This document shows, piece by piece, positions 5,718 to 27,946 of a stretch of DNA of 64,000 bases. Each line of letters begins with the position of its first letter. The stretch's first letter is position 1. This stretch comes from an uncultured Candidatus Rokubacteria bacterium. Lineage in GTDB: Bacteria > Methylomirabilota > Methylomirabilia > Rokubacteriales > CSP1-6. Where the stretch lies: contig CAVXJS010000021.1 of assembly GCA_963762145.1 (NCBI GenBank), positions 800,001-864,000 on the forward strand, written 5' to 3'. The translations under genes were made by a program, and so were the position numbers. The notes under the pieces were generated by a model that saw nothing but the letters and a program-made list of their open reading frames with translations, was not told the DNA's origin and did no database searches.

Positions 5718-6560
5718 TCAATTTTTGACCTCGGGCCAGACCACCATGCCGGTACCCGATCGCCAGGCGACCGCCGGCATGTAGGCGAGGACCTCGGCGG
5801 CACCGCTGGTGAACGCGAGCGCGAGAATCCAGGCGAGCAGCTCCGCGGTACCGCCCGAGCCGGCGGCCTCCATCCGCTCGAGCGTGCACTCGCGCAGGAG
5901 CGCGGCGTGATCGCCCTGCTTGAGCAGGCCGAGGAACCACCGGTCGAACTCCTCGTCCACCCAGAAATAGCGCGGGCCGCCCGGCTCGTGCGAGAGCCCG
6001 CCGGTGGCGACCACCGCGACCCGCTCGTCGCTCGGATAGGCCCGCACCATCTCCCGCATGACCGTCCCCACCTCGTAGGCGCGGGCCGGCGTCGGGATCG
6101 GCGGGACCGTGCAGTTCATCGTCACCGGGACCAGCGGGATATCGCCCGCGGGGTTCAGATAGTGCATCGGCACCGACACCCCGTCGTCGAACTGCATCTC
6201 GCGCAGATACGAGAAGGCGAGCCGCCGGCGCGCACCCTCGTTGACCAGGTGACGGGCGAGCGCGGGGTGTCCGGCGATGCGGTACTTGGCGAGCGCGAGC
6301 CACTCGTCGTACCAGTCGGCGGGGCCCACGTGCTCGGCCCCGATGCCCACCGTGTACTCCGGCGTGTTGTTGATCGGCCAGTTGAGCAGGTGGTCGTTGC
6401 TGAACAGCAGGATCACGTCGGGCCGGGCCGCCCGCAGGCGCTCCCGCATCTCGTCGAGCGCGCGCCGGGCGTCAAGCCGCTGGTCCTCCGGGGCCCGGTC
6501 GAACCAGCCGGTCAGGCCGGGCGAGTGCGTCATCGCCATCGCGGCCACGATGCGCGCCAC
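5718..6560 (-). CDS. Class III extradiol ring-cleavage dioxygenase, LigB-type catalytic subunit
   Basis: THSP, SNDH, ATGGLSH and GTAELLAW motifs. Confidence 0.85.
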   Translation of the reverse strand: MARIVAAMAMTHSPGLTGWFDRAPEDQRLDARRALDEMRERLRAARPDVILLFSNDHLLNWPINNTPEYTVGIGAEHVGPADWYDEWLALAKYRIAGHPALARHLVNEGARRRLAFSYLREMQFDDGVSVPMHYLNPAGDIPLVPVTMNCTVPPIPTPARAYEVGTVMREMVRAYPSDERVAVVATGGLSHEPGGPRYFWVDEEFDRWFLGLLKQGDHAALLRECTLERMEAAGSGGTAELLAWILALAFTSGAAEVLAYMPAVAWRSGTGMVVWPEVKN

Positions 6561-6562
6561 GC

Positions 6563-6907
6563 TCAGCCCTCCCGCCGGGCCGGCGCGGCGAGCCGCTCCG
6601 CGGCGGCGGTCTCGGCCGGGTACGCGCGCTTGTAGGCCTCGAGCGCGGGGTGGCTATTGCTGTTGGCGGAGGCGCCGTAGAAGAGCCGGAGGATCTGGGG
6701 GATGTAGTACTGGTGCACGCCCATCTCGTTGAGCCGCCGGACGTCCTTGTCCCGGACCGCCTCGTACTCCTCGCGGCTCAGGCCAAACTCGCGGGCGAGG
6801 CCTTCGAGATCGCTGAGCCACCGGGCTCGGAGCACGGCGTCCCGGCGCACATAGAAGATCATCTCGTTCACCGGCAGGGTCTTGTCGCAGCGCTCGACGT
6901 TACCCAT
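6563..6907 (-). CDS. LigA-like dioxygenase small subunit
   Basis: Small helical protein (REFGLSREEYEAV...LNEMGVHQY) directly upstream of the LigB-type gene. Confidence 0.7.
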   Translation of the reverse strand: MGNVERCDKTLPVNEMIFYVRRDAVLRARWLSDLEGLAREFGLSREEYEAVRDKDVRRLNEMGVHQYYIPQILRLFYGASANSNSHPALEAYKRAYPAETAAAERLAAPARREG

Positions 6908-7268
6908 CTGTCCTCGCGGACAGCACCTTGGGGTTGACCTTGAGGAACATGATGACGCAGCGCTCGGGGCCCAGGTTCCGGACGTCGTGCATGACGCTCT
7001 GCGGGAACTTCACGATCGAGCCCGCATTCACCACCACTTCCTCGCCGCCGATGCTCATGTGGGCGGTCCCCTCGAGCACGAAGATCGCCTCCTCCTCCTT
7101 CGGGTGCGTGTGCATCACGGTGGACTGGCCCGGCTCGTAACAGGCGATCTCCGACCAGAGCTGGTCGGTCTTGAAGAGCATCTTGCGGACGCGCTTGTCG
7201 GGAGCGAAAGCCTTCAGCGCGTGCAGATCGAAGATCTGCGCTACACCAGTCACACGCGTCTCTTCCAT
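6900..7268 (-). CDS. Cupin-domain protein
   Basis: PGQSTVMHTHPKEEEAIFVLEG...P...H cupin motifs. Confidence 0.85.
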   Translation of the reverse strand: MEETRVTGVAQIFDLHALKAFAPDKRVRKMLFKTDQLWSEIACYEPGQSTVMHTHPKEEEAIFVLEGTAHMSIGGEEVVVNAGSIVKFPQSVMHDVRNLGPERCVIMFLKVNPKVLSARTDG

Positions 7269-7377
7269 TGCGCCCGAATCATAGCGCGGTCGCGGAGCCT
7301 CCGCCACCGGCCCGCCGCGCGCTCGGAAGTTCGTCGTTGACATCCCCCGACCCGTTCAGTAGAACAGGCCGACGACC

Positions 7378-15813: not shown

Positions 15814-16911
15814 TCAATCCTTGAGGCGCACGACGTTGAAGGCCTTCACCGGCCGCTGGAAGCCCTTCAGTGTGAGCTCGCCGACCCCCTCGACCTCCGC
15901 GATCTCCTCCACCCCGCCCGCCACCCGCTGCGAGAGCAGGATCTGGCCCGGCTTGGCCTCGCCGCAGAGCCGCGAGGCGAGGTTAGTCACGGTGCCGATC
16001 GCGCCGTAGTCCAGGCGCCCCTCGAAGCCGACCGCCCCGATGGTGGCATAGCCCTGCGCGATGCCCACCCCGAAGTCGAGATCGAATCCCCGCTTGCGCC
16101 AGGCCTCGGTGAGCGTGCCGATGCGGTCCCGCATCGTGGCGGCCATGCGGACGGCGCGCGGGGCCGGATCCGGGACCTCCACCGGGTCGTTGAAGAAGAT
16201 CATCATGCCGTCGCCCGCGAAGCGCTCCAGGGTGCCCTCGGCGGCCACGATCAGCCGGCCCATCTCGGCGTGGTACTCGCGCAGCACGGTCATGACCTCT
16301 TCCGGCTCCGCGGTCTCCGCGAACGCGGTGAAGCCGCGCAGATCGAGGAAGACCACCGTGATCTCCCGGCGGTGGCTCTTGAGCGGATCCTCGGTGTCGC
16401 CCGCCACGATCAGCTCGGCGAGCTGGGGCGAGAAGAAGCGGCGCAGCCGCCCCAGGCGCTCGAGCTGGGCCACCTGGTCCCGCACCCGCTGCTCGAGCGT
16501 CCGGTTCAGCTCCTCGAGTTCCTGGTGCAGCGCACGGATTCGCAGCAGCGAGCGCACGCGCGCGAGCAGCTCGGGCTGGTTGATCGGCTTCGTCAGGAAA
16601 TCGTCGGCGCCTACCTCGATGCCCTTGACCCGCTCCGTCACCGGATCGAGCGCGGTCACCATGACGACCGGCAGGAGCCGCGTCGCCTCGTCGGCCCGCA
16701 GCCGCCGGCAGACCTCGTACCCGCTCATCTCCGGCATCACCACGTCCAGGAGGACGAGATCCGGCTGCTCGGCCCGCACCCGCTCCAGGGCGACCGCGCC
16801 GGACGGCGCGGTGATCACGGTGTACCCGTGCCCGGCCAGCACGCCCTCGAGCAGCTTGACGTTCATCGGGGTGTCGTCCACCACCAGGATACGGGCCGCC
16901 GGCTGGCTCAC
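15814..16911 (-). CDS. Response regulator fused to class III adenylate/guanylate cyclase
   Basis: REC domain (VVDD, LLDVVMP, TKP) followed by VFLDLRGFT, FAGDG, YGAIGTVTNLASRL. Confidence 0.92.
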   Translation of the reverse strand: MSQPAARILVVDDTPMNVKLLEGVLAGHGYTVITAPSGAVALERVRAEQPDLVLLDVVMPEMSGYEVCRRLRADEATRLLPVVMVTALDPVTERVKGIEVGADDFLTKPINQPELLARVRSLLRIRALHQELEELNRTLEQRVRDQVAQLERLGRLRRFFSPQLAELIVAGDTEDPLKSHRREITVVFLDLRGFTAFAETAEPEEVMTVLREYHAEMGRLIVAAEGTLERFAGDGMMIFFNDPVEVPDPAPRAVRMAATMRDRIGTLTEAWRKRGFDLDFGVGIAQGYATIGAVGFEGRLDYGAIGTVTNLASRLCGEAKPGQILLSQRVAGGVEEIAEVEGVGELTLKGFQRPVKAFNVVRLKD

Positions 16912-17287
16912 CGCGCGCGCTCGCCCTTCGCGGGGCGATCCAGCATCGCGCGGACCGCGGCGACGAACTGGTTCACGTCGATGGGCTTGGCCTGGTAGCC
17001 GTCGAAGCCCGCGGCCATGATCTTCTGCCGGTCCTGGGTCATGGCCGACGCGGTCACCGCGATCACCGGGATCGCCCGCGTCCGCTCGTCGGATCGGAGG
17101 GCCTGGAGCGCCTCGATCCCGTTCATGCGCGGGAGCTGGATGTCCATGAGGACCAGGGCGGGGGGCGTCGCCTGCGCGAGCGCGATGCCGTCCTCCGCGT
17201 TCTCGGCCTCCGCGGTCCGGTACCCGTGGAACTGGAGGATGTCGCGCTCCAGCTTGCGGTTCTTCTCGTTGTCCTCGACGATCAGGA

Positions 17288-17303
<16 letters not shown>
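16908..17303 (-). CDS. Single-domain response regulator (DivK-like)
   Basis: IVEDN, LMDIQLP, AVTASAM, KPID. Confidence 0.92.
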
Positions 17304-20722
<3,419 letters not shown>

Positions 20723-20732
20723 CGTTCCGGCG

Positions 20733-20761
20733 AGTGTAGGCCGGGGCTAAACCCCTGTCAA
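20733..20761 (-). promoter_or_regulatory. Sigma-70 promoter of the kinase operon, overlapping the 3' end of the upstream gene
   Basis: TTGACA-17 nt-TACACT, ending 10 nt before the ATG at 20722. Confidence 0.7.
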
Positions 20762-21900
20762 ATATGCCTCCGGCGCCCCGGACCCCAGCGGGCAGCCGGG
20801 CGGCATGAGCGCCGTCTTCTTCCGGATGATGTCGCCCGCGTACCGCTCGAGATAGTGGGCGATCGTCTCCACGCGGATCTTCACCGATCCGGCCGGCTTG
20901 GTCGAGTCCAGGTCCTGGAACGAGAAGAACAGCGTGCCGGAGCGCTCCACGATCTGCTGCACCGGCGTGTAGGTCGGCTGGTCCATGCCGCACTCGTAGC
21001 TGGCCAGCCGGACCACGCAGGCGACCCACGGCATCCGGGCCGCCGCCTTCGCGCCCCAGAGGATCTCGTTGGTGTTGCTGCTGTAGGACGAGGGCCACAC
21101 GTCACGGATGTCGAACGGGGATTTGATGTGGCCGGCCCGGACGTCCTCCCCGAACGCCCACTGCATCAGGTCGTCGTCGATCGGGAAGTACTGAGCCCAC
21201 AGCACCGGGTAGCCGTAGGCCTGCAGGTCCACCTCGATCTCGTGGCCGATGCCCGGATCCATGTGATAGGGCCGCGCCAGGACCATCAGGCACGCGCGGT
21301 TCTCGCGCGCGCACCACTCGAGGACCTCGCGGCCCTTGGCGCGAAGGCGGGCGTTGAACTCGGTCAGCGCGCGGTAACCCGCCTCCACCGCCCCGCGCCG
21401 TCTCCTCGCGCGGTGAGCCCGGGGATCACGCCGTCGAGCGCCTCCCAGAGCTGCTTGGGCACGAGCCGCGGCTCGTCGAGGGAGACGAACGGGGCGGCGT
21501 AGCGGATGCCCTGCTCCGCGAAGACGTCGCGCTCCTTCATGAAGCCGGCCTTGATGTTCTCGGGCGCGGCCATCACCCGAGGGCAGGTGAGCGTGCGCGC
21601 CACGTGGCCGGAGAGAAACGAGGGCAGGTTGTAGATCATCGGCGAGAAGAGGATGTCGAGCTTCTCGCGCTGGCCGAAGATCAGCTCGCCGTAGTGGCCC
21701 GCGATGCACTTGACCGGATAGCAGCAGTCCACCGTGCCCCGGCCCTTGCCGAACTGCCGCCCCTGCTCCTCGGAGGTGTCGGAGGAGAAGACGAGCTGGC
21801 GCGCTTCGACCCCCAGCTCGCCGAAGAAGCCCACCCAGAACTGGTGGGTGGACCAGAGGTTCAGGACGCGGGGAATGCCGATCCGGAGGCTAGCCCGCGA
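20747..21900 (-). CDS. DUF2229 / 2-hydroxyacyl-CoA dehydratase-like reductase module (PlsA C-terminal-like); frameshift about 21390; probably fused to the upstream activase
   Basis: LRIGIPRVLN, DCCYPVK, TCP, ARPYHMDPGIGHEI, YECGMD, GSVKIRVET. Confidence 0.8.
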
Positions 21901-24073
21901 CGGCCTCGGATCCCGCGCGGGAGCGGCGAAACGCGTCCTTCCGAACCATCTCGGCAACGTTAGGGTAGTCACGCTTGACCTCCTCCAGCTTCGCCTTCAC
22001 CTCGCGCAGCTCGTTCACGTCCTCGACCAGCCCCTTCGGGCAGGAGTTGCCGCTGATGACTCGCTCCCAGCCCGCGGCCAGGGGCAGCTTGCTCCACGGG
22101 CGCCCCCTGGCGCCGGGCAGCTGGACGTCGATGAAGGTGCGGGTGCAGTTGATCGGGCACCACTTGCAGACCGTGTCGGCGGCGGTGGTGCTCGTGTAGG
22201 TCAGGGCCGCGATGGCCTCGAAGCCCCGGAAGCGACTCGCGCGGCCGCCCCCGGCCTCGCGCCAGTCGGCGGCGCAGAGCGCGGCGCCGATGGCGCCCGC
22301 CTCGCCCGAATAGGGATGGAGGACCACGTCGGCCTCCGGCACCTTGCCGCGTATGAAGTCCACCTGGGCCTTCACCACCGCCATGTTGCGATGGGTGCCG
22401 CCCTGCAGCACGAACTTGCGCCCGACCGCGCGCAGATTCTGGAGCTGGCCCGCGTAGATCCAGACGTTGACCGGCAGCACCGCGGCCAGCGCGGCCATGA
22501 TCTCCTCCGCGGCCCAGCCCTTGCGCTGCTGGTTGACGATATCGGACTGGAGGAACACGCCGCAGCCCATCGCGAGCGTGGGCATCGCCTTGGCCTCGAA
22601 GGCCTTCTCAGCGTAGGCCTCGAGCGGGATCGCGTAGCGCTCGGCCACGCCCTGGAGGAATGCCCCGTTGCCCGAGGAGCACTGAGAGTTCAGCCGGAAG
22701 TCGGCCACGGTGCCCTGGCGCAGGATCATGATCTTGACGTCGGTGCCGCCCACGTCGCAGATCACGTCCGCGTCGGGGTGGAAGTGGAGCGTGCCGGTGG
22801 CGTGGGCCACCGTCTCGACCACCGCCACGTCGGCGCCGACCACGTCGTTCAGGAGGTCCTTCCCGTACCCGGTGAGCGCGAGTCCACCGACATCCGTGTA
22901 GCCGGCCTCGCGGACCTGGCGGAACAGCGACTGGGCGTCCTCGATCGGATTGCCCTTGGACAGCGCGTAGCAGGTGAAGAGCAGCTCGCGCGCGGGCGAG
23001 AGTACGACCGCCTTGGCGGTGGTGCTGCCGAAGTCGCAGCCGACCAGCACCGGGCCGGCCAGCTCCGCGGCGGCGCACGCCGATGCGGAGCGCTTGAGGT
23101 CGAACTCGGCCACGAACGAGGTGAGATCCTCCGCGCAGGCCACCAGCGCGCCGCCGCCCGCCTTGGCCTTCTCCTCCTGCTGGCCCTCGTCCACCCACCA
23201 GCGCAGCCGGTCGCGGCCCTGGTAGACCGCGACCTCGTCCGCCTCGCCCGCGCCGATCTCGACGCAGCCGAGGCACGCGTAGTAGAGCGCCTCCGCGGGA
23301 ACGGAGATGAGCGACGCGGGGTCGCGCCCCTCCGGCAAGGCCACCTTCCGCTGCGCCCACAGCTTGCCCAGGTGATGACGCCAGGCCTCCTGCAGGCCCT
23401 TGAAGAAGAGGTTCGGACCGCCCAGCAGCAGGACCTCGGGGGCCGGGGTATTGCCCTTGGTGAGCGTGGCGAGGTTCTGGTACACCACCGCCTCGAAGAG
23501 GCTCGCGATGATCTCCTCGACCGGCACCCCGGTCTTCACGAGGGTGTTGGCGTCGGTCTCGGCGAAGATGCCGCACTTGCTGCTGACCTTGTGGAGGCTC
23601 ATGCCCGCGTAGGACAGGATCGCGAGCTGCTCGCTCGCGACCTGGAGCTTGCGCGCGGTCTTCTCGATGAAGGTGCCGGTGCCGCCGCTGCACGCCGACT
23701 GCATGTAGACCTGCTTCGAGCGCCCGATTCCGGTGGGCGTGAAGAAGATCGTCTTCATGTCCTCGCCGCCGATCTCCGACACGAAGCGCACGTCCGGGTG
23801 CAGCCGCTCGACGCACGCGGCGACCGCGACCACCTCCTGGATCATCTTGGCCCCGACCAGCGGGCCCAGCAGGCCCGCGCCCGAGCCGGTGAAGAAGATC
23901 CGGTCGCGGCCGGGCTCGACCTGGGCCTCCTCCTCCATGCGCCCCAGGAACTCGAGCACCTTCTCGGCCTGGCGCGTGTTGTGGCGCTGGTAGTCCTGCC
24001 AGAGGATGCGCCCGTCTTCAAGGGCGACTGCCTTGACGGTGGTCGAACCGACGTCCATGCCGATCAGCTTCAT
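21890..24073 (-). CDS. Tandem BadF/BadG/BcrA/BcrD ATPase (acyl-CoA dehydratase activase) domains, PlsA N-terminal-like
   Basis: Two ASKHA modules: DVGSTTVK...EIGGED...CSGGTG...CGIF and DFGSTTAK...DVGGTD...CSSGNG...CGVF; CKWCPINC...GNSC linker. Confidence 0.9.
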   Translation of the reverse strand: MKLIGMDVGSTTVKAVALEDGRILWQDYQRHNTRQAEKVLEFLGRMEEEAQVEPGRDRIFFTGSGAGLLGPLVGAKMIQEVVAVAACVERLHPDVRFVSEIGGEDMKTIFFTPTGIGRSKQVYMQSACSGGTGTFIEKTARKLQVASEQLAILSYAGMSLHKVSSKCGIFAETDANTLVKTGVPVEEIIASLFEAVVYQNLATLTKGNTPAPEVLLLGGPNLFFKGLQEAWRHHLGKLWAQRKVALPEGRDPASLISVPAEALYYACLGCVEIGAGEADEVAVYQGRDRLRWWVDEGQQEEKAKAGGGALVACAEDLTSFVAEFDLKRSASACAAAELAGPVLVGCDFGSTTAKAVVLSPARELLFTCYALSKGNPIEDAQSLFRQVREAGYTDVGGLALTGYGKDLLNDVVGADVAVVETVAHATGTLHFHPDADVICDVGGTDVKIMILRQGTVADFRLNSQCSSGNGAFLQGVAERYAIPLEAYAEKAFEAKAMPTLAMGCGVFLQSDIVNQQRKGWAAEEIMAALAAVLPVNVWIYAGQLQNLRAVGRKFVLQGGTHRNMAVVKAQVDFIRGKVPEADVVLHPYSGEAGAIGAALCAADWREAGGGRASRFRGFEAIAALTYTSTTAADTVCKWCPINCTRTFIDVQLPGARGRPWSKLPLAAGWERVISGNSCPKGLVEDVNELREVKAKLEEVKRDYPNVAEMVRKDAFRRSRAGSEAVAG

Positions 24074-25615
24074 CAGCTGGCCTTCCGCGCCACGTGCAGC
24101 ACCAGGTTTGCGGCCTGCCCGGCGCATCCCATGTGAGGAACCCGGTAGGTCGCGCGCTTCATCTTCGGATGCGCGTCCAGGTAGGCCCGCACCTGCTCGA
24201 GGGTCATGCCGCTCCGCTCGAGGGCCTCGTCGAACTCGCGCTGCGCCCGCTTCCTGGCCTCGGTCAGGATCATCTGGCAGCGGGAGAGCGCGTGCACCTC
24301 CGCGTCGCCCTTGATCTCGAGCGGGGCATAGAGCAGGTCGGGGTACTTGCCGATCACGCCCGCCATCGCCCCGATGGACATCGTGTTGGGCATGCACGAG
24401 TAGGGCGACAGCTCGCAGATCATGTGGGCCTTCTTCTTCTGGTGCGCCCAGATCGCCTTGCCCACCAGCATGTCGCCCTCGCCGCCGTCGAGGCGGCTAT
24501 GGAAGTAGGGCGCGGCCAGCTTCCGGAGCTCGAGCTGGTACGGCAGCTCGTGCGGCAGGTTGCCCATGGCCCGGCGCAGCCGGTTGAAGGTGGCGCGGTA
24601 GATGGCCTGCACCGCGCGCCCGAGCCCGAGCTTGAGCCGCGCGCCCTTCTCGATGCCGGAGTAGTCCTCGAAGCGCTGCAGCCCCAGCCGCAGCAGGTAG
24701 TCCATCCAAACCGTGATGCCGGCCGGATAGACCTCGGCGCCCTCCGCCTCGAGCCAGCGGTGGATGTTGTAGTTGGGATCGCCCTCGACGGTCTGGAGGT
24801 AGAACTCGCCGGTGATCTTCACGGTCGGCTTCACCCGCAGGCGATCCACCTCGATGGCGTCGAACTTCGCCCGCACCTGCCGCATCGCCCGGGCGAAGTA
24901 GCCGGTGGTCAGGAACCAGAAGACCGAGCGCCACGGCCCCCGCTTGGGCCGGTTCCGGAACGCCTGGTAGAGGAGCTCGACCGACTCCTTGACCACCGCC
25001 TCGGTCTGCCCGGGCACGACCTCGTACGGGCGGACCTGGTACTCGAGGTCTTGCACCAGGTCCGTGCAGAAGATCGCCCAGAGGCAGCCGAGCGTGACCG
25101 GCAAGGTTGAGATCGAGCCCGTCGCCCATCGCCGCCTTCTGGTCGAGCTGATCCTGGGCGAGGAGGAACATGCGGAAGGCGTCGAGCCCGGAATTGCGCA
25201 GGGCCAGCTCGTAGCTCTGGTGGTACTGGCCGAAGCGGCACGCCCCGCACGAGCCCGCGGTGAGGTAGACGAACTTCTGGTTCACCTCCTCGGCGCCGAT
25301 CTGCTTCGACTTGGTCTTGAGGAAGTTGACCAGGTTGCCGGTGGTGAAGCTGGTCGGGCAGCACTGGCCGATGTCGGCGACCTCGCGGCCGGTGAGGAGA
25401 TCGTCCCGCGTGGCTACCGGCAGGACCTGCGCCCGGTGCCCGCCGCTCTCCAGCACCGCCTGCAGGATCCGCTCGACACGCCAGTGCAGGCCGCCGAAGA
25501 GGATCGTCACCGACTCGCGCTCGGCGCGGGTGAACGGGCGCGGGGTGTAGGCGCGGTAGTGGCCGGCCGCGGCCTGCGGTTCGCCTGGGCGGCGCTCAGT
25601 GGTTGCCGTTGCCAT
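24073..25615 (-). CDS. 2-hydroxyacyl-CoA dehydratase-like protein (PlsR-like); frameshift about 25104
   Basis: GQCCPT, GSCGACRFGQY, ITGEFY, GEG, SPYSCMPN, EIKGD; its stop overlaps the activase start (TGATG). Confidence 0.82.
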
Positions 25616-26432
25616 TGCGTCCTCCGTGTGGCGGCGCGGGAGCGCGGTCGGCGCCCCCTGCGTGCCGATCCATCCAGGACTCGAGGAGCTGCACCGTCTC
25701 GAAGCCGGGCAGACGCCGGATCGTCTCATCCACCTTGCGCGCCGCGGCCAGCCCCTCGGGCCCTCCGAAGAGATACGTGGCCAGGAAGCGCAGCTCGGCA
25801 TCGGGCTGGACTCCGCTGCCGACCGGGGCCCAGAACCGGTCAACCAGGAAGCGCGCGGTTCGCGCGACGCCGCGGCGCCCGAGGCGCAGCTCCGCCTGGC
25901 GGTAGTAGAAGAAGAAATGCCGCGATTCGTCGAGCGCGATGCGCTCGAGCAGATCCGTGAGCACCGGGTGATCGGTCAGGGCGGCCAGGCGCCGGTATCC
26001 GGTGAGCGTGGTCAGCTCGTTGATCGCGCCCCAGGTCATGTGGACCGCGCAGAAGCTGGGCCAGGCCTTCGACACCATCGCGGTCGCCGCCGCCTCCACC
26101 CGCTTCGCCCAGCTCTCCTGCCCGCGGGGCAGCGCACGCGCGCCCACCGGCGTGCCGGCAGCCTGCAGGAAGCGCTGGATGGCCAGGCCGTGGAAGGTCT
26201 CCTCGTAGACCCAGCAGGCGAGGAAGGTGGCGACGTCCGGATCGTCGACGGCGCGGGTGGCCAGCAGCGAGCGGAGGTAGATGATGGTGTGGCTCTCGAT
26301 GTCCTGCATGAAGCGCATGGTGCGCAGGGCCTCGGGAGGGACGGCATGCCGAGGGACCGCGGCCCAGTCGATGGCCGCTAGGTCCACCGCCCTCGAACGC
26401 CCGACATAGCTGTCGATGTCGAAAGCAGGCAT
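25596..26432 (-). CDS. Ferritin-like di-iron carboxylate protein (acyl-ACP desaturase-like fold)
   Basis: E (DIESH)...EETFH...E (AINE)...DESRH four-helix-bundle ligand pattern; overlaps the next gene by 20 nt. Confidence 0.8.
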   Translation of the reverse strand: MPAFDIDSYVGRSRAVDLAAIDWAAVPRHAVPPEALRTMRFMQDIESHTIIYLRSLLATRAVDDPDVATFLACWVYEETFHGLAIQRFLQAAGTPVGARALPRGQESWAKRVEAAATAMVSKAWPSFCAVHMTWGAINELTTLTGYRRLAALTDHPVLTDLLERIALDESRHFFFYYRQAELRLGRRGVARTARFLVDRFWAPVGSGVQPDAELRFLATYLFGGPEGLAAARKVDETIRRLPGFETVQLLESWMDRHAGGADRAPAPPHGGRNGNGNH

Positions 26433-26444
26433 CGCTCGCCTCAA

Positions 26445-26473
26445 GTCATACGACACTGCCGGTGGTATTTCAA
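26445..26473 (-). promoter_or_regulatory. Sigma-70 promoter for the ferritin-like / PlsR / PlsA-like operon
   Basis: TTGAAA-17 nt-TATGAC, ending 12 nt before the ATG at 26432. Confidence 0.55.
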
Positions 26474-26538
26474 TGCCCGAACCTCCCCGACCGCTGGGAC
26501 TCCCTGCCCTGAACTACGGGCCGAGAGGGGAACCGGAT

Positions 26539-27156
26539 CTACGAGGAGGGGCAGTGCGCCCGGACCAGGTCGGCGAGGTTACCGCCGCGGGGGACCGGGT
26601 CCAGCGGGCCGACCACCGCCCGGTGGCGGACGATGCCGTCGCGGTCCACCAGGAAAATGCCCTGCTCCATGGCGGTCATGGCGTGGTGGTGGAGCCGGCG
26701 GACGAAGTTCCGGTTCATGACGTCCAGCCAGGCGCCCCGGACCTGCGGACCCGTGTCGCCATGAGTGAACGCGTAGGAGAAGCTCACCACCGCCGAACGC
26801 GTCGCCTCGAGGGCGCCCCGGTCCCCGAGGCCGTAGACCGCGAAGAGGCGCTTGTCGGGATCGCAGACGAAGGGGTAGGGGGTGGGGCTATGGCCGAAGA
26901 AGATGCGGGCGGACTGGAGCAGGTTGGGACCGACCTGGATGATCTCGGCCTCCGCGGCCCGGAGCAGATCGTAACCCTCGCGCATGCCGTCCATGTAGAC
27001 CCGGCAGAACGGGCAGGTGAACCCGCGAGAGAACCAGACCACGACATTGCGGCGCCCGCGATACGCGGCGAGCTCCACCGGATCGCCCTGGACCGAGGTC
27101 AGGCTGAAGAGCGGCGCCGGCTGGCCGACGGCCGCAGGCTCGGGAACGGACGCCAC
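26539..27156 (-). CDS. AhpC/TSA peroxiredoxin-like (thioredoxin-fold) protein
   Basis: GQPAPLFSL, SRGFTCPFC, PFVCDPDKRLFAVYG, GIFLVDRDG. Confidence 0.82.
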   Translation of the reverse strand: MASVPEPAAVGQPAPLFSLTSVQGDPVELAAYRGRRNVVVWFSRGFTCPFCRVYMDGMREGYDLLRAAEAEIIQVGPNLLQSARIFFGHSPTPYPFVCDPDKRLFAVYGLGDRGALEATRSAVVSFSYAFTHGDTGPQVRGAWLDVMNRNFVRRLHHHAMTAMEQGIFLVDRDGIVRHRAVVGPLDPVPRGGNLADLVRAHCPSS

Positions 27157-27247
27157 GGGCCCACGATAGCACGCGGCCCGCAAGGTCTCGCCCAGATTGA
27201 ATTTATTGACGTAGGCGGCCCGGGCTCGCTACCCTTCCGGGTAACCG

Positions 27248-27946
27248 GTGAACCCCATCAAAGTCGTGTACCACTTCGGGTTTCCAGACGGGGGCTCTAA
27301 GGCCTATACCGTCGAGCTGGACCGCGCCACCCTCTCTTATCTGCCCTCGGTAGCCGAGCAGCCGCCCGCGTGGGCGCGGCTCGAGAACCACCAATGCGGC
27401 CATTGCCCGCTAAAACCGGCCGAGCATCCCTACTGCCCGGTGGCCACCAATCTCTCCACCCTGGTGGAGTTCTTCAAGGACAAGGCCTCGGTAGCGGAGG
27501 CGACGGTCACGGTGACGACCGAGGAGCGGACCTACGTCAAGCAGCTCTCGCTCCAGCGGGGTATCTTCGGCATCTTCGGCCTCGTCATGGCCACCAGCTC
27601 CTGCCCGTACATGGACTTCCTCAAGCCGATGGCCCGCTTCCACCTGCCGTTCTCGACGGCGGAGGAAACCATCGTTCGCTCGGTCTCCATGTACCTCCTG
27701 CGCCAGTATTTCGTGGCCAAGCGGGGCGAGCAGCCCGATCTGGGTCTCGAGCACCTCGAGACGCACTACGGGAACATCCAGCAGGTGAACGACGGCATTC
27801 TGGAGCGCATCAAGGGTGTCGTGGAAAACGACGCCGACCTCAACGCCCTCATCATCCTCCAGGGCTTCGCCGACCTCCTGACCATGGCGATCTCGAAGGA
27901 TCTCTCCAAGATCGAGCCGCTCTTCTTTAGATCGGAGGGGGCCTAG
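27248..27946 (+). CDS. Conserved hypothetical Cys-containing protein (DUF6901-like)
   Basis: WARLENHQCGHCPL...CPVA, MATSSCP, KPMARFHLPF; TTGACG-18-TACCCT promoter upstream. Confidence 0.7.
   Translation: MNPIKVVYHFGFPDGGSKAYTVELDRATLSYLPSVAEQPPAWARLENHQCGHCPLKPAEHPYCPVATNLSTLVEFFKDKASVAEATVTVTTEERTYVKQLSLQRGIFGIFGLVMATSSCPYMDFLKPMARFHLPFSTAEETIVRSVSMYLLRQYFVAKRGEQPDLGLEHLETHYGNIQQVNDGILERIKGVVENDADLNALIILQGFADLLTMAISKDLSKIEPLFFRSEGA

Follow-up and report, generated by a model that had tools for sequence, protein, structure and literature searches.

A candidate PlsA/PlsR-Ger-type reductase, split into three permuted polypeptides, with a facultative di-iron partner in a soil Rokubacterium

The closest described systems to the locus reported here are PlsA/PlsR and Ger. 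PlsA is composed of Act1, Act2 and Red1 modules and PlsR of a Red2 module, and this enzyme class is O2-labile (PMC12838417). Ger is composed of a BBD core plus further segments; the core is conserved in all alkyl-ether producers listed there (Table S21), and Ger activity was seen only under anoxic expression (PMC13159169). Here we describe a gene cluster on the minus strand of a 64,000-nucleotide (nt) stretch of DNA (the window; positions 800,001 to 864,000 of contig CAVXJS010000021.1, assembly GCA_963762145.1) from a metagenome-assembled genome (MAG) of a soil Rokubacterium, phylum Methylomirabilota (6.26 Mb in 25 contigs, 88% complete, about 70% G+C). The cluster contains a gene for a di-iron carboxylate protein followed by three genes that we call R, BB and D. 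We tentatively read the operon as encoding a three-polypeptide, permuted reductase of the PlsA/PlsR-Ger type and an accessory di-iron enzyme, with the frameshifts that interrupt two of the genes being assembly errors, a reading that has a substantial chance of being right and perhaps a slightly larger one of being wrong in some part.

From 27183 to 20747 on the minus strand, the genes are ordered AhpC/TSA-like redoxin, di-iron gene, R, BB and D. The di-iron gene (25596..26432) encodes 278 amino acids (aa) counted from ATG 26432; R (24073..25615) encodes about 510 aa and is assigned by BLASTP and fold as the second reductase module (Red2, the PlsR equivalent); BB (21890..24073) encodes a double activase of 727 aa; and D (20747..21972) encodes a DUF2229 protein (Red1) of about 407 aa. 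Translation of the four is tightly coupled by overlaps of 20 nt (di-iron gene and R), 1 nt (R and BB) and 83 nt (BB and D). An earlier note on this DNA had placed genes at these positions on the minus strand, with the last 20 nt of the di-iron gene overlapping the start of R at its ATG, and direct reading agrees with it; the TGATG overlap that it also recorded lies between R and the activase gene.

The domain content of BB and D is clear from family searches. BB contains two BcrAD_BadFG stretches (PF01869, E 2.5e-67) and scores 226.9 bits against TIGR00241 (cut-off 125.4). After the second activase domain, at about 22020-22150, it carries a C-terminal CxxCxxxC...C motif that is present in 5/5 split-type members and, in variant form, in one of 11 other rows (P0393), and that could be an extra metal or cluster site. 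In the window, the Pfam DUF2229 model (PF09989) matches D on two frame pieces (E 2e-25 and 1e-12), and it matches continuously in the orthologue L014 (E 8e-44). D is the only DUF2229 locus in the source genome, by a genome search in which the control genomes of Thermotoga maritima and Lactococcus lactis match. C84, C130 and C327 of D are invariant, and D aligns with the DUF2229 module of a relative's fused 1531-aa BBD protein.

R was assigned from fused homologues and from its predicted structure. It aligns with residues 1122-1464 of the same 1531-aa protein (BLASTP, 25% identity over 371 aa, E 9e-19) and is 23-26% identical to fused proteins of 1382-1438 aa, some of them Lachnospiraceae-labelled; Cys83, Cys124 and Cys405 are invariant. 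A Pfam search of R gave nothing at E<=1 beyond chance-level families, and neither its sequence nor its profile gave a meaningful match to solved structures. The AlphaFold2 (AF2) model of R (predicted local distance difference test score, pLDDT, 79.6), aligned with VIA-align, matched HadBC (3o3m_B, Z 10.1), BzdNO (9.5), DCCP (9.2) and MbdON (8.7), no other match exceeding 5.8. The top 19 Foldseek rows all belonged to the HAD/BCR/DCCP superfamily, five of them at E<=0.001. The model thus indicates that R has the fold of a HAD/BCR/DCCP catalytic subunit. A profile comparison of R with D (hhalign) fell short of significance (E 0.079), its alignment covering no more than the C-terminal Cys motif.

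Because R matches the Red2 part of fused activase proteins and its model has the HAD/BCR/DCCP fold, the parts list, as judged from sequence, is PlsA/PlsR-Ger-like, split in three and permuted. The earlier note had proposed these same parts (Act1-Act2, Red1/DUF2229 and a second reductase) and a reversed order with R before the activase, and both proposals hold, the order being R, BB, D. The canonical order is found in a relative, genome G154, which has a fused 1081-aa BBD protein followed by R, at 36-42% identity. In a 16-row tree of BB, D and R, whose homologues are unnamed or Lachnospiraceae-labelled and include no characterised PlsA/PlsR or Ger member, the split clade and G154 group with fused 1421-aa Lachnospiraceae-type proteins and are separated from the phylum's own fused paralogues with a Shimodaira-Hasegawa-like approximate likelihood ratio test (SH-aLRT) value of 100. 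Such paralogues occur at loci L021 (G021:C77, 2779-7371) and L022 (G001:C111, 4296-8690), which have a second, fused BBD-R protein of 1465-1531 aa; at only 25-33% identity it is a distinct paralogue, and the source genome has the split locus only.

The double activase and the DUF2229 module, which the earlier note had treated as one unit, are encoded by two genes. The position of the BB stop is kept in 8/8 relatives' loci from two genera, while its codon varies among TAG, TGA and TAA. D opens at GTG 21972, 83 nt upstream of that stop, and a Shine-Dalgarno-like GGAGGAGG (21979..21986, minus strand) lies 6 nt before this GTG, within the BB coding sequence; in L014 and L016 the D frame is likewise open from the equivalent of GTG 21972, behind an upstream stop. 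The nucleotides of the overlap (21890-21972) hardly vary between two genera, a pattern that dual coding would produce, and its codons are unusually AT-rich given the 70% G+C of the genome. In genome G146 there is no overlap of BB and D, and in G154 they are fused in frame. These comparisons indicate that BB and D are separate, overlapping genes and not one frameshifted gene. A programmed frameshift from BB into D was set aside because the BB stop varies synonymously, a Shine-Dalgarno sequence and GTG precede D, and the G146 and G154 arrangements exist.

The lead gene encodes a protein that keeps all six ligands of a 2-His/4-carboxylate site: in 51 family members E54 is invariant, and E85, E86, H89, E147, E177 and H180 are at least 90% conserved, which sustains the E..ExxH/E..ExxH motif read in the earlier note. 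Its AF2 model (pLDDT 90.5) matched stearoyl-ACP desaturase (1oq4_A, Z 17.7, root-mean-square deviation 3.5 over 238 residues), DesA2 (1za0, Z 16.7), R2lox (4hr0, Z 15.4) and the ribonucleotide reductase R2 protein (Z 15.1), and ferritin-, Dps- and rubrerythrin-type bundles at Z 10-11 over 125-150 of the 278 residues. These matches came from the exhaustive aligner; the best Foldseek hit had E 4e-3, with none at E<=0.001. Pfam FA_desaturase_2 (PF03405) gave 21.2 bits for the window protein and 16.7 for that of L014, not reaching the cut-off of 22.7, and in a language-model atlas PF03405 is present in 16-42% of members of the clusters nearest to the di-iron protein. A Pfam scan found no rubrerythrin, ferritin or Dps family and no rubredoxin or reductase domain in it. 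The family comprises 1041 representative clusters at E<=0.001. The lead gene product is thus, on its model, a di-iron carboxylate protein with a soluble acyl-ACP desaturase/R2lox-like fold, and the earlier identification of a di-iron lead gene stands. Complex prediction of R with the di-iron protein returned a score of 0.00, which is no answer and evidence neither way.

To describe how the two modules are distributed, we surveyed 80 genome loci with a di-iron homologue, 31 Rokubacteria-type and 49 from other phyla. R is next to the di-iron gene in 31/31 Rokubacteria-type loci, BB is present in 28 and D in 22, and the remainder end at contig edges. The homologues in the other phyla (Binatia, Myxococcota, Actinomycetota, Elusimicrobia and others) are 42-70% identical, and R, BB and D were all absent within 8 kb in each of these 49 loci; genes for a divergent ECF sigma factor (14/49) and an RskA-type anti-sigma factor (10/49) are the most frequent neighbours, with SDR, acyl-CoA dehydrogenase, Hsp33, PagL, CMAS and (haem) peroxidase genes scattered among the loci. 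The di-iron family tree left out five of 80 rows, whose matches were short or contained stops; in it the linked genes fall together on one side of a branch (29 rows, SH-aLRT 99). We infer that the di-iron gene was recruited into the operon once, in one Rokubacterial subclade.

On the enzyme side, 201 genomes of the phylum were sampled; 83 have a match to R at E<=1e-10, and 64 of these are split-type orthologues by reading of the table. The di-iron protein has a match in 52 of the 201 genomes; 49 have both, 15 have R only and three have the di-iron protein only. These counts are the only ones that the unpublished R-only genome G090 enters, and some R-only assignments are provisional, as their loci sit at contig ends. 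Three MAGs (L025, L026 and L042) are labelled Dormiibacterota or Verrucomicrobiia, which conflicts with their genome-based placement; L026 equals L014 over all four operon genes, and the genome of L014 is placed in the window's own genus. The window stretch or part of it occurs in 20 sequencing runs from 11 studies, all of soil, rhizosphere or groundwater; the RNA runs have a small share, and no habitat or expression claim is drawn from them.

The proposed mechanism is that of the PlsA/PlsR-Ger type, an ATP-driven iron-sulfur radical reductase within the BCR/HAD superfamily. BB would hydrolyse ATP and inject a low-potential electron into an R/D heterodimer. Like PlsA/PlsR and Ger, this heterodimer would act on a membrane glycerolipid and reduce its sn-1 acyl ester, giving an alkyl or alk-1'-enyl ether. 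The di-iron protein would be a facultative accessory and not a subunit. It would most probably be an O2-using oxidase or desaturase acting on a lipid, a role that takes about half of the weight that we give to this reading; in about a third of it, the protein would instead serve as a guard that consumes O2, produced alongside an O2-labile enzyme in an aerobic host. The host is an aerobe, since its genome has two full COX1 matches. An ether-lipid function of R-BB-D is plausible, with a membrane acyl ester as the likeliest substrate.

Several observations weigh against this proposal. R and D are only 23-26% identical to their fused homologues, and the HGD-D Pfam signature, which matches neither R nor D, is missing from R. 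No lipid-metabolism gene is conserved beside the cluster in the flanks of the window and of the relatives' loci. No lipid product is known for any Rokubacterium, and Ca. Methylomirabilis oxyfera is listed as having neither ether lipids nor a Ger homologue (PMC13159169, Table S21). The partnership itself is loose: R-BB-D occurs without an upstream di-iron gene in G059, G081 and G147 (family f1, that of the window) and in families f8 and f12, the other genomes checked being G105, G044, G051, G146, G189 and G142, and no di-iron gene was found anywhere in five such genomes searched whole. Conversely, of five whole genomes of other phyla that have a di-iron homologue, none encodes DUF2229 (0/5), and the congener G101 has an intact di-iron gene between the DUF6901 and kinase genes and lacks R-BB-D. 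At that locus (L115, G101:C51, 3071-7305) the DUF6901 gene, the di-iron gene and the histidine kinase gene are directly adjacent, a clean loss, or lack, of the AhpC-like gene, R, BB and D.

Because R-BB-D occurs without the di-iron gene, and G101 has the di-iron gene without R-BB-D, the two are separable in both directions, and the di-iron gene is a dispensable add-on. The earlier note had the gene lead the operon, but a role as a defining, conserved leader is not supported by these results: the linkage is confined to one Rokubacterial subclade, and the R-BB-D orthologues that do without the gene, G101 and the loci of other phyla all speak against it.

A second possibility, and one that we consider quite real, is that R-BB-D belongs to the same enzyme class but acts on another substrate, which might be an aromatic compound, some small molecule or a (thio)ester other than a lipid, so that the ether-lipid analogy would be only architectural. 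What makes this rival serious is the absence of any conserved lipid-related gene around the cluster. Upstream of R the genes differ between loci and have no link to lipids (a luciferase-like monooxygenase, an AAT-like protein and a thiamine pyrophosphate (TPP) enzyme), the nearest solved folds of R are subunits of DCCP, benzoyl-CoA reductase and 2-hydroxyisocaproyl-CoA dehydratase, and aromatic ring-cleavage (LigAB) genes lie 13 kb away in the window; the low identity to fused BBD proteins fits this rival as well. It is opposed by the architecture, since the combination of double activase, DUF2229 and Red2 is described only for PlsA/PlsR and Ger in the cited parts of PMC12838417 and PMC13159169, by the lack of a match to HGD-D, which is the signature of CoA-ester dehydratases, and by the tree that groups the split clade with Lachnospiraceae-type fused proteins. 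The PlsA/PlsR-Ger-type reading also draws on two of the five flank-scanned loci without the di-iron gene, where a TetR gene lies directly upstream of R (L103, 3763-4359; L105, 9051-9704); in facultative anaerobes, pls likewise has a TetR gene upstream (PMC9702350).

For the di-iron protein, the lines of evidence point in different directions: the fold neighbours favour a substrate-oxidising enzyme, and the AhpC-like gene and the stress-type neighbours favour protection. That the protein, joined in genus g1 by the AhpC-like redoxin, is an O2/peroxide guard for the O2-labile Fe-S enzyme and does not modify lipid is somewhat unlikely. In its favour, the host is an aerobe, and R-BB-D can dispense with the di-iron gene. 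Two genera have the AhpC/TSA-like gene linked, though not in one place: in genus g1 loci it precedes the di-iron gene, in one genus g6 locus (L033) it follows D, and it was not found in the remaining Rokubacteria-type loci of the 31. Also in its favour, the neighbours in other phyla (the ECF sigma and RskA-type factors, Hsp33 and haem peroxidase) are of a stress type. However, the best folds are those of substrate-oxidising di-iron enzymes (Z 15-18 over 209-238 residues, against 10-11 for ferritin, Dps and rubrerythrin), the protein has no rubredoxin or reductase domain, and G101 retains the gene after loss of R-BB-D. The core that the model shares with ferritin/Dps-like chains would be compatible with a scavenging role. 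The most specific version of the accessory role, in which the protein is a soluble O2-dependent desaturase or oxidase acting on the ether lipid made by R-BB-D and converting, for example, a Ger-type 1-O-alkyl lipid to a vinyl-ether plasmalogen, would be a long shot.

Both R and D are interrupted in the window. R carries a 1-nt insertion (an extra T) near 25104, and D carries two 1-nt insertions near 21409 and 21394, all seen only in the window assembly; R is an uninterrupted single frame in 8/8 relatives' loci, and D is a single frame in both translated relatives (L014 and L016). When the 5.7-kb region was aligned with six short-read relatives and two other long-read-style MAGs, the window had three unique 1-nt insertions and the long-read-style MAGs L023 and L048 ('MFD...') had 12 and five. 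The six short-read assemblies had no unique 1-nt indel within R, BB or D, and their sole one falls where the di-iron gene meets R, a junction that varies. Because the insertions are unique to the window, are common in long-read-style MAGs and are missing from R, BB and D of the short-read assemblies, the three breaks are, on this comparison, most likely consensus or assembly errors and not decay. The frameshifts reported in the earlier note are thus present in R and D, but in these two genes only, the break between BB and D being a true gene boundary. Gene calls from long-read-style assemblies such as L023 and L048 will fragment the R-BB-D operon.

The alternative, that the frameshifts are real, R and D are pseudogenes and the cluster is decaying in this organism, is very unlikely. 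Three single-base insertions do fall within 3 kb of coding sequence, and relatives do show losses of either module, but the reading frames are otherwise fully conserved, at 88-97% identity to intact orthologues, and insertions of the same type are frequent in the two long-read-style MAGs. Least credible of all is an enzyme of amino-acid or aromatic fermentation, whether 2-hydroxyacyl-CoA dehydratase or class I benzoyl-CoA reductase, which superfamily membership at the fold level and partial matches of BB to the NCBIfam benzoyl-CoA reductase A/D/Q subunit models would suggest, but which is largely refuted by the domain tests, as those matches reach 88-98 bits against cut-offs of 313-578 and the cluster, when compared with the amino-acid-fermentation dehydratases, is not of that type, having a fused double activase and DUF2229 in place of HGD-D.

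Upstream of the di-iron gene, the earlier note had proposed a sigma-70 promoter. The motif exists, as TTGAAA-17-TATGAC at 26445..26473 on the minus strand (read directly), and is conserved in 7/7 aligned genus-g1 sequences, but it is weak: it has 9/12 consensus matches, with the final T missing, and it was not listed by a consensus promoter scan, in which the sole site in 20400-27500 was 20733..20761. The motif lies 13-41 nt before ATG 26432. This ATG, rather than GTG 26456, from which the reading frame is open, is likely from sequence comparison to be the true start of the di-iron gene; most database homologues of the protein start at this ATG, which is conserved.

Directly upstream on the same strand, a gene at 26539..27183 encodes an AhpC/TSA-family redoxin-like protein of 214 aa with a CPFC motif (Pfam AhpC-TSA, E 1e-17); whether it belongs to the operon is uncertain. 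A divergently transcribed, Cys-rich DUF6901 gene follows on the plus strand (27248-27946, E 1.5e-74), and its position next to the AhpC-like and di-iron genes is conserved in genus g1 loci. Downstream of D, 15817-20722 encodes a histidine kinase (1144 aa, dCache-HAMP-3xGAF) and a response regulator-adenylate/guanylate cyclase, and in genus g1 loci the kinase gene stays with the cluster. Its own promoter-like site, TTGACA-17-TACACT (20733..20761, minus strand; 10/12 matches in the consensus scan), precedes it, which suggests that the kinase is a separate transcription unit from the cluster. Elsewhere in the window, LigAB-type extradiol dioxygenase, cupin and luciferase-like monooxygenase genes lie at 5721-7355 and 1384-2727, such that O2-dependent enzymes share a neighbourhood with a member of an O2-labile enzyme class.

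Rokubacteria are abundant in soil, uncultured and without lipid data. No paper in the literature search contained both 'DUF2229' and 'ferritin-like', and papers pairing Rokubacteria or Methylomirabilota with 'ether lipid' are, by title and abstract, community surveys. A PlsA/Ger-type enzyme in an aerobe, if confirmed, would mark them as possible makers of non-isoprenoid ether lipids, and the working of an O2-labile radical enzyme in oxic soil would then call for an explanation. In the split, permuted layout nature has already taken the fused enzyme apart into its Act, Red1 and Red2 pieces, which could aid biochemistry. That the di-iron partner is lineage-specific and dispensable makes a new pathway step less likely, though still conceivable; if the protein does act on the ether lipid, the result would be a third, hybrid anoxic/oxic plasmalogen route in abundant, uncultured aerobic soil bacteria, and Rokubacteria would be an unrecognised source of ether lipids in soil.

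An O2-dependent di-iron enzyme, the plasmanylethanolamine desaturase PEDS1 (TMEM189, CarF), finishes plasmalogen synthesis elsewhere, and it is a membrane histidine-box desaturase. It offers a functional analogy for the alkyl-to-vinyl-ether possibility, although its fold is unrelated to that of the di-iron protein, and the CarF/PEDS1 family (PF10520) had no match in the source genome in a search run without a positive control. Closer in structure are the soluble acyl-ACP desaturases, Mycobacterium tuberculosis DesA2 and R2lox, which have the same 2-His/4-carboxylate motif, a helical bundle and a similar size, and which act on or bind long acyl chains; the di-iron protein is 14-18% identical to them and is shorter than the plant desaturases (278 aa versus about 330-360 aa).

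With HadBC/HgdAB (activated by HadI/HgdC), BzdNO, MbdON and DCCP, the cluster shares the logic of ATP-driven electron activation, and R shares the catalytic-subunit fold (Z 8.7-10.1). HadBC/HgdAB, BCR and DCCP differ from the cluster in working with one activator protein, in bearing HGD-D signatures and in taking CoA esters or small molecules as substrates. The BBD core is shared with Ger (Thermotoga maritima Tmari_0479; Desulfatibacillum alkenivorans SHJ90043), but Ger is one fused polypeptide in which BBD is followed by small segments of HGD-D and DUF2229, against three permuted proteins in the cluster; the products of Ger are saturated ethers. PlsA/PlsR (Clostridium perfringens CPE1194/1195) is like the Rokubacterial cluster in having two activase domains, a DUF2229 Red1 and a separate Red2 protein, encoded by tightly coupled genes and belonging to the BCR/HAD superfamily with presumed [4Fe-4S] clusters (PMC12838417, PMC9702350); in Enterococcus and Lactococcus it is one fused gene. 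The cluster differs from PlsA/PlsR in that R, of about 510 aa, lacks an HGD-D Pfam match, BB has the extra Cys4 motif and the host is an aerobe. Thus, where PlsA/PlsR has the order BBD-R, the cluster has the order R, BB, D, with the equivalent of PlsA split into two overlapping genes.

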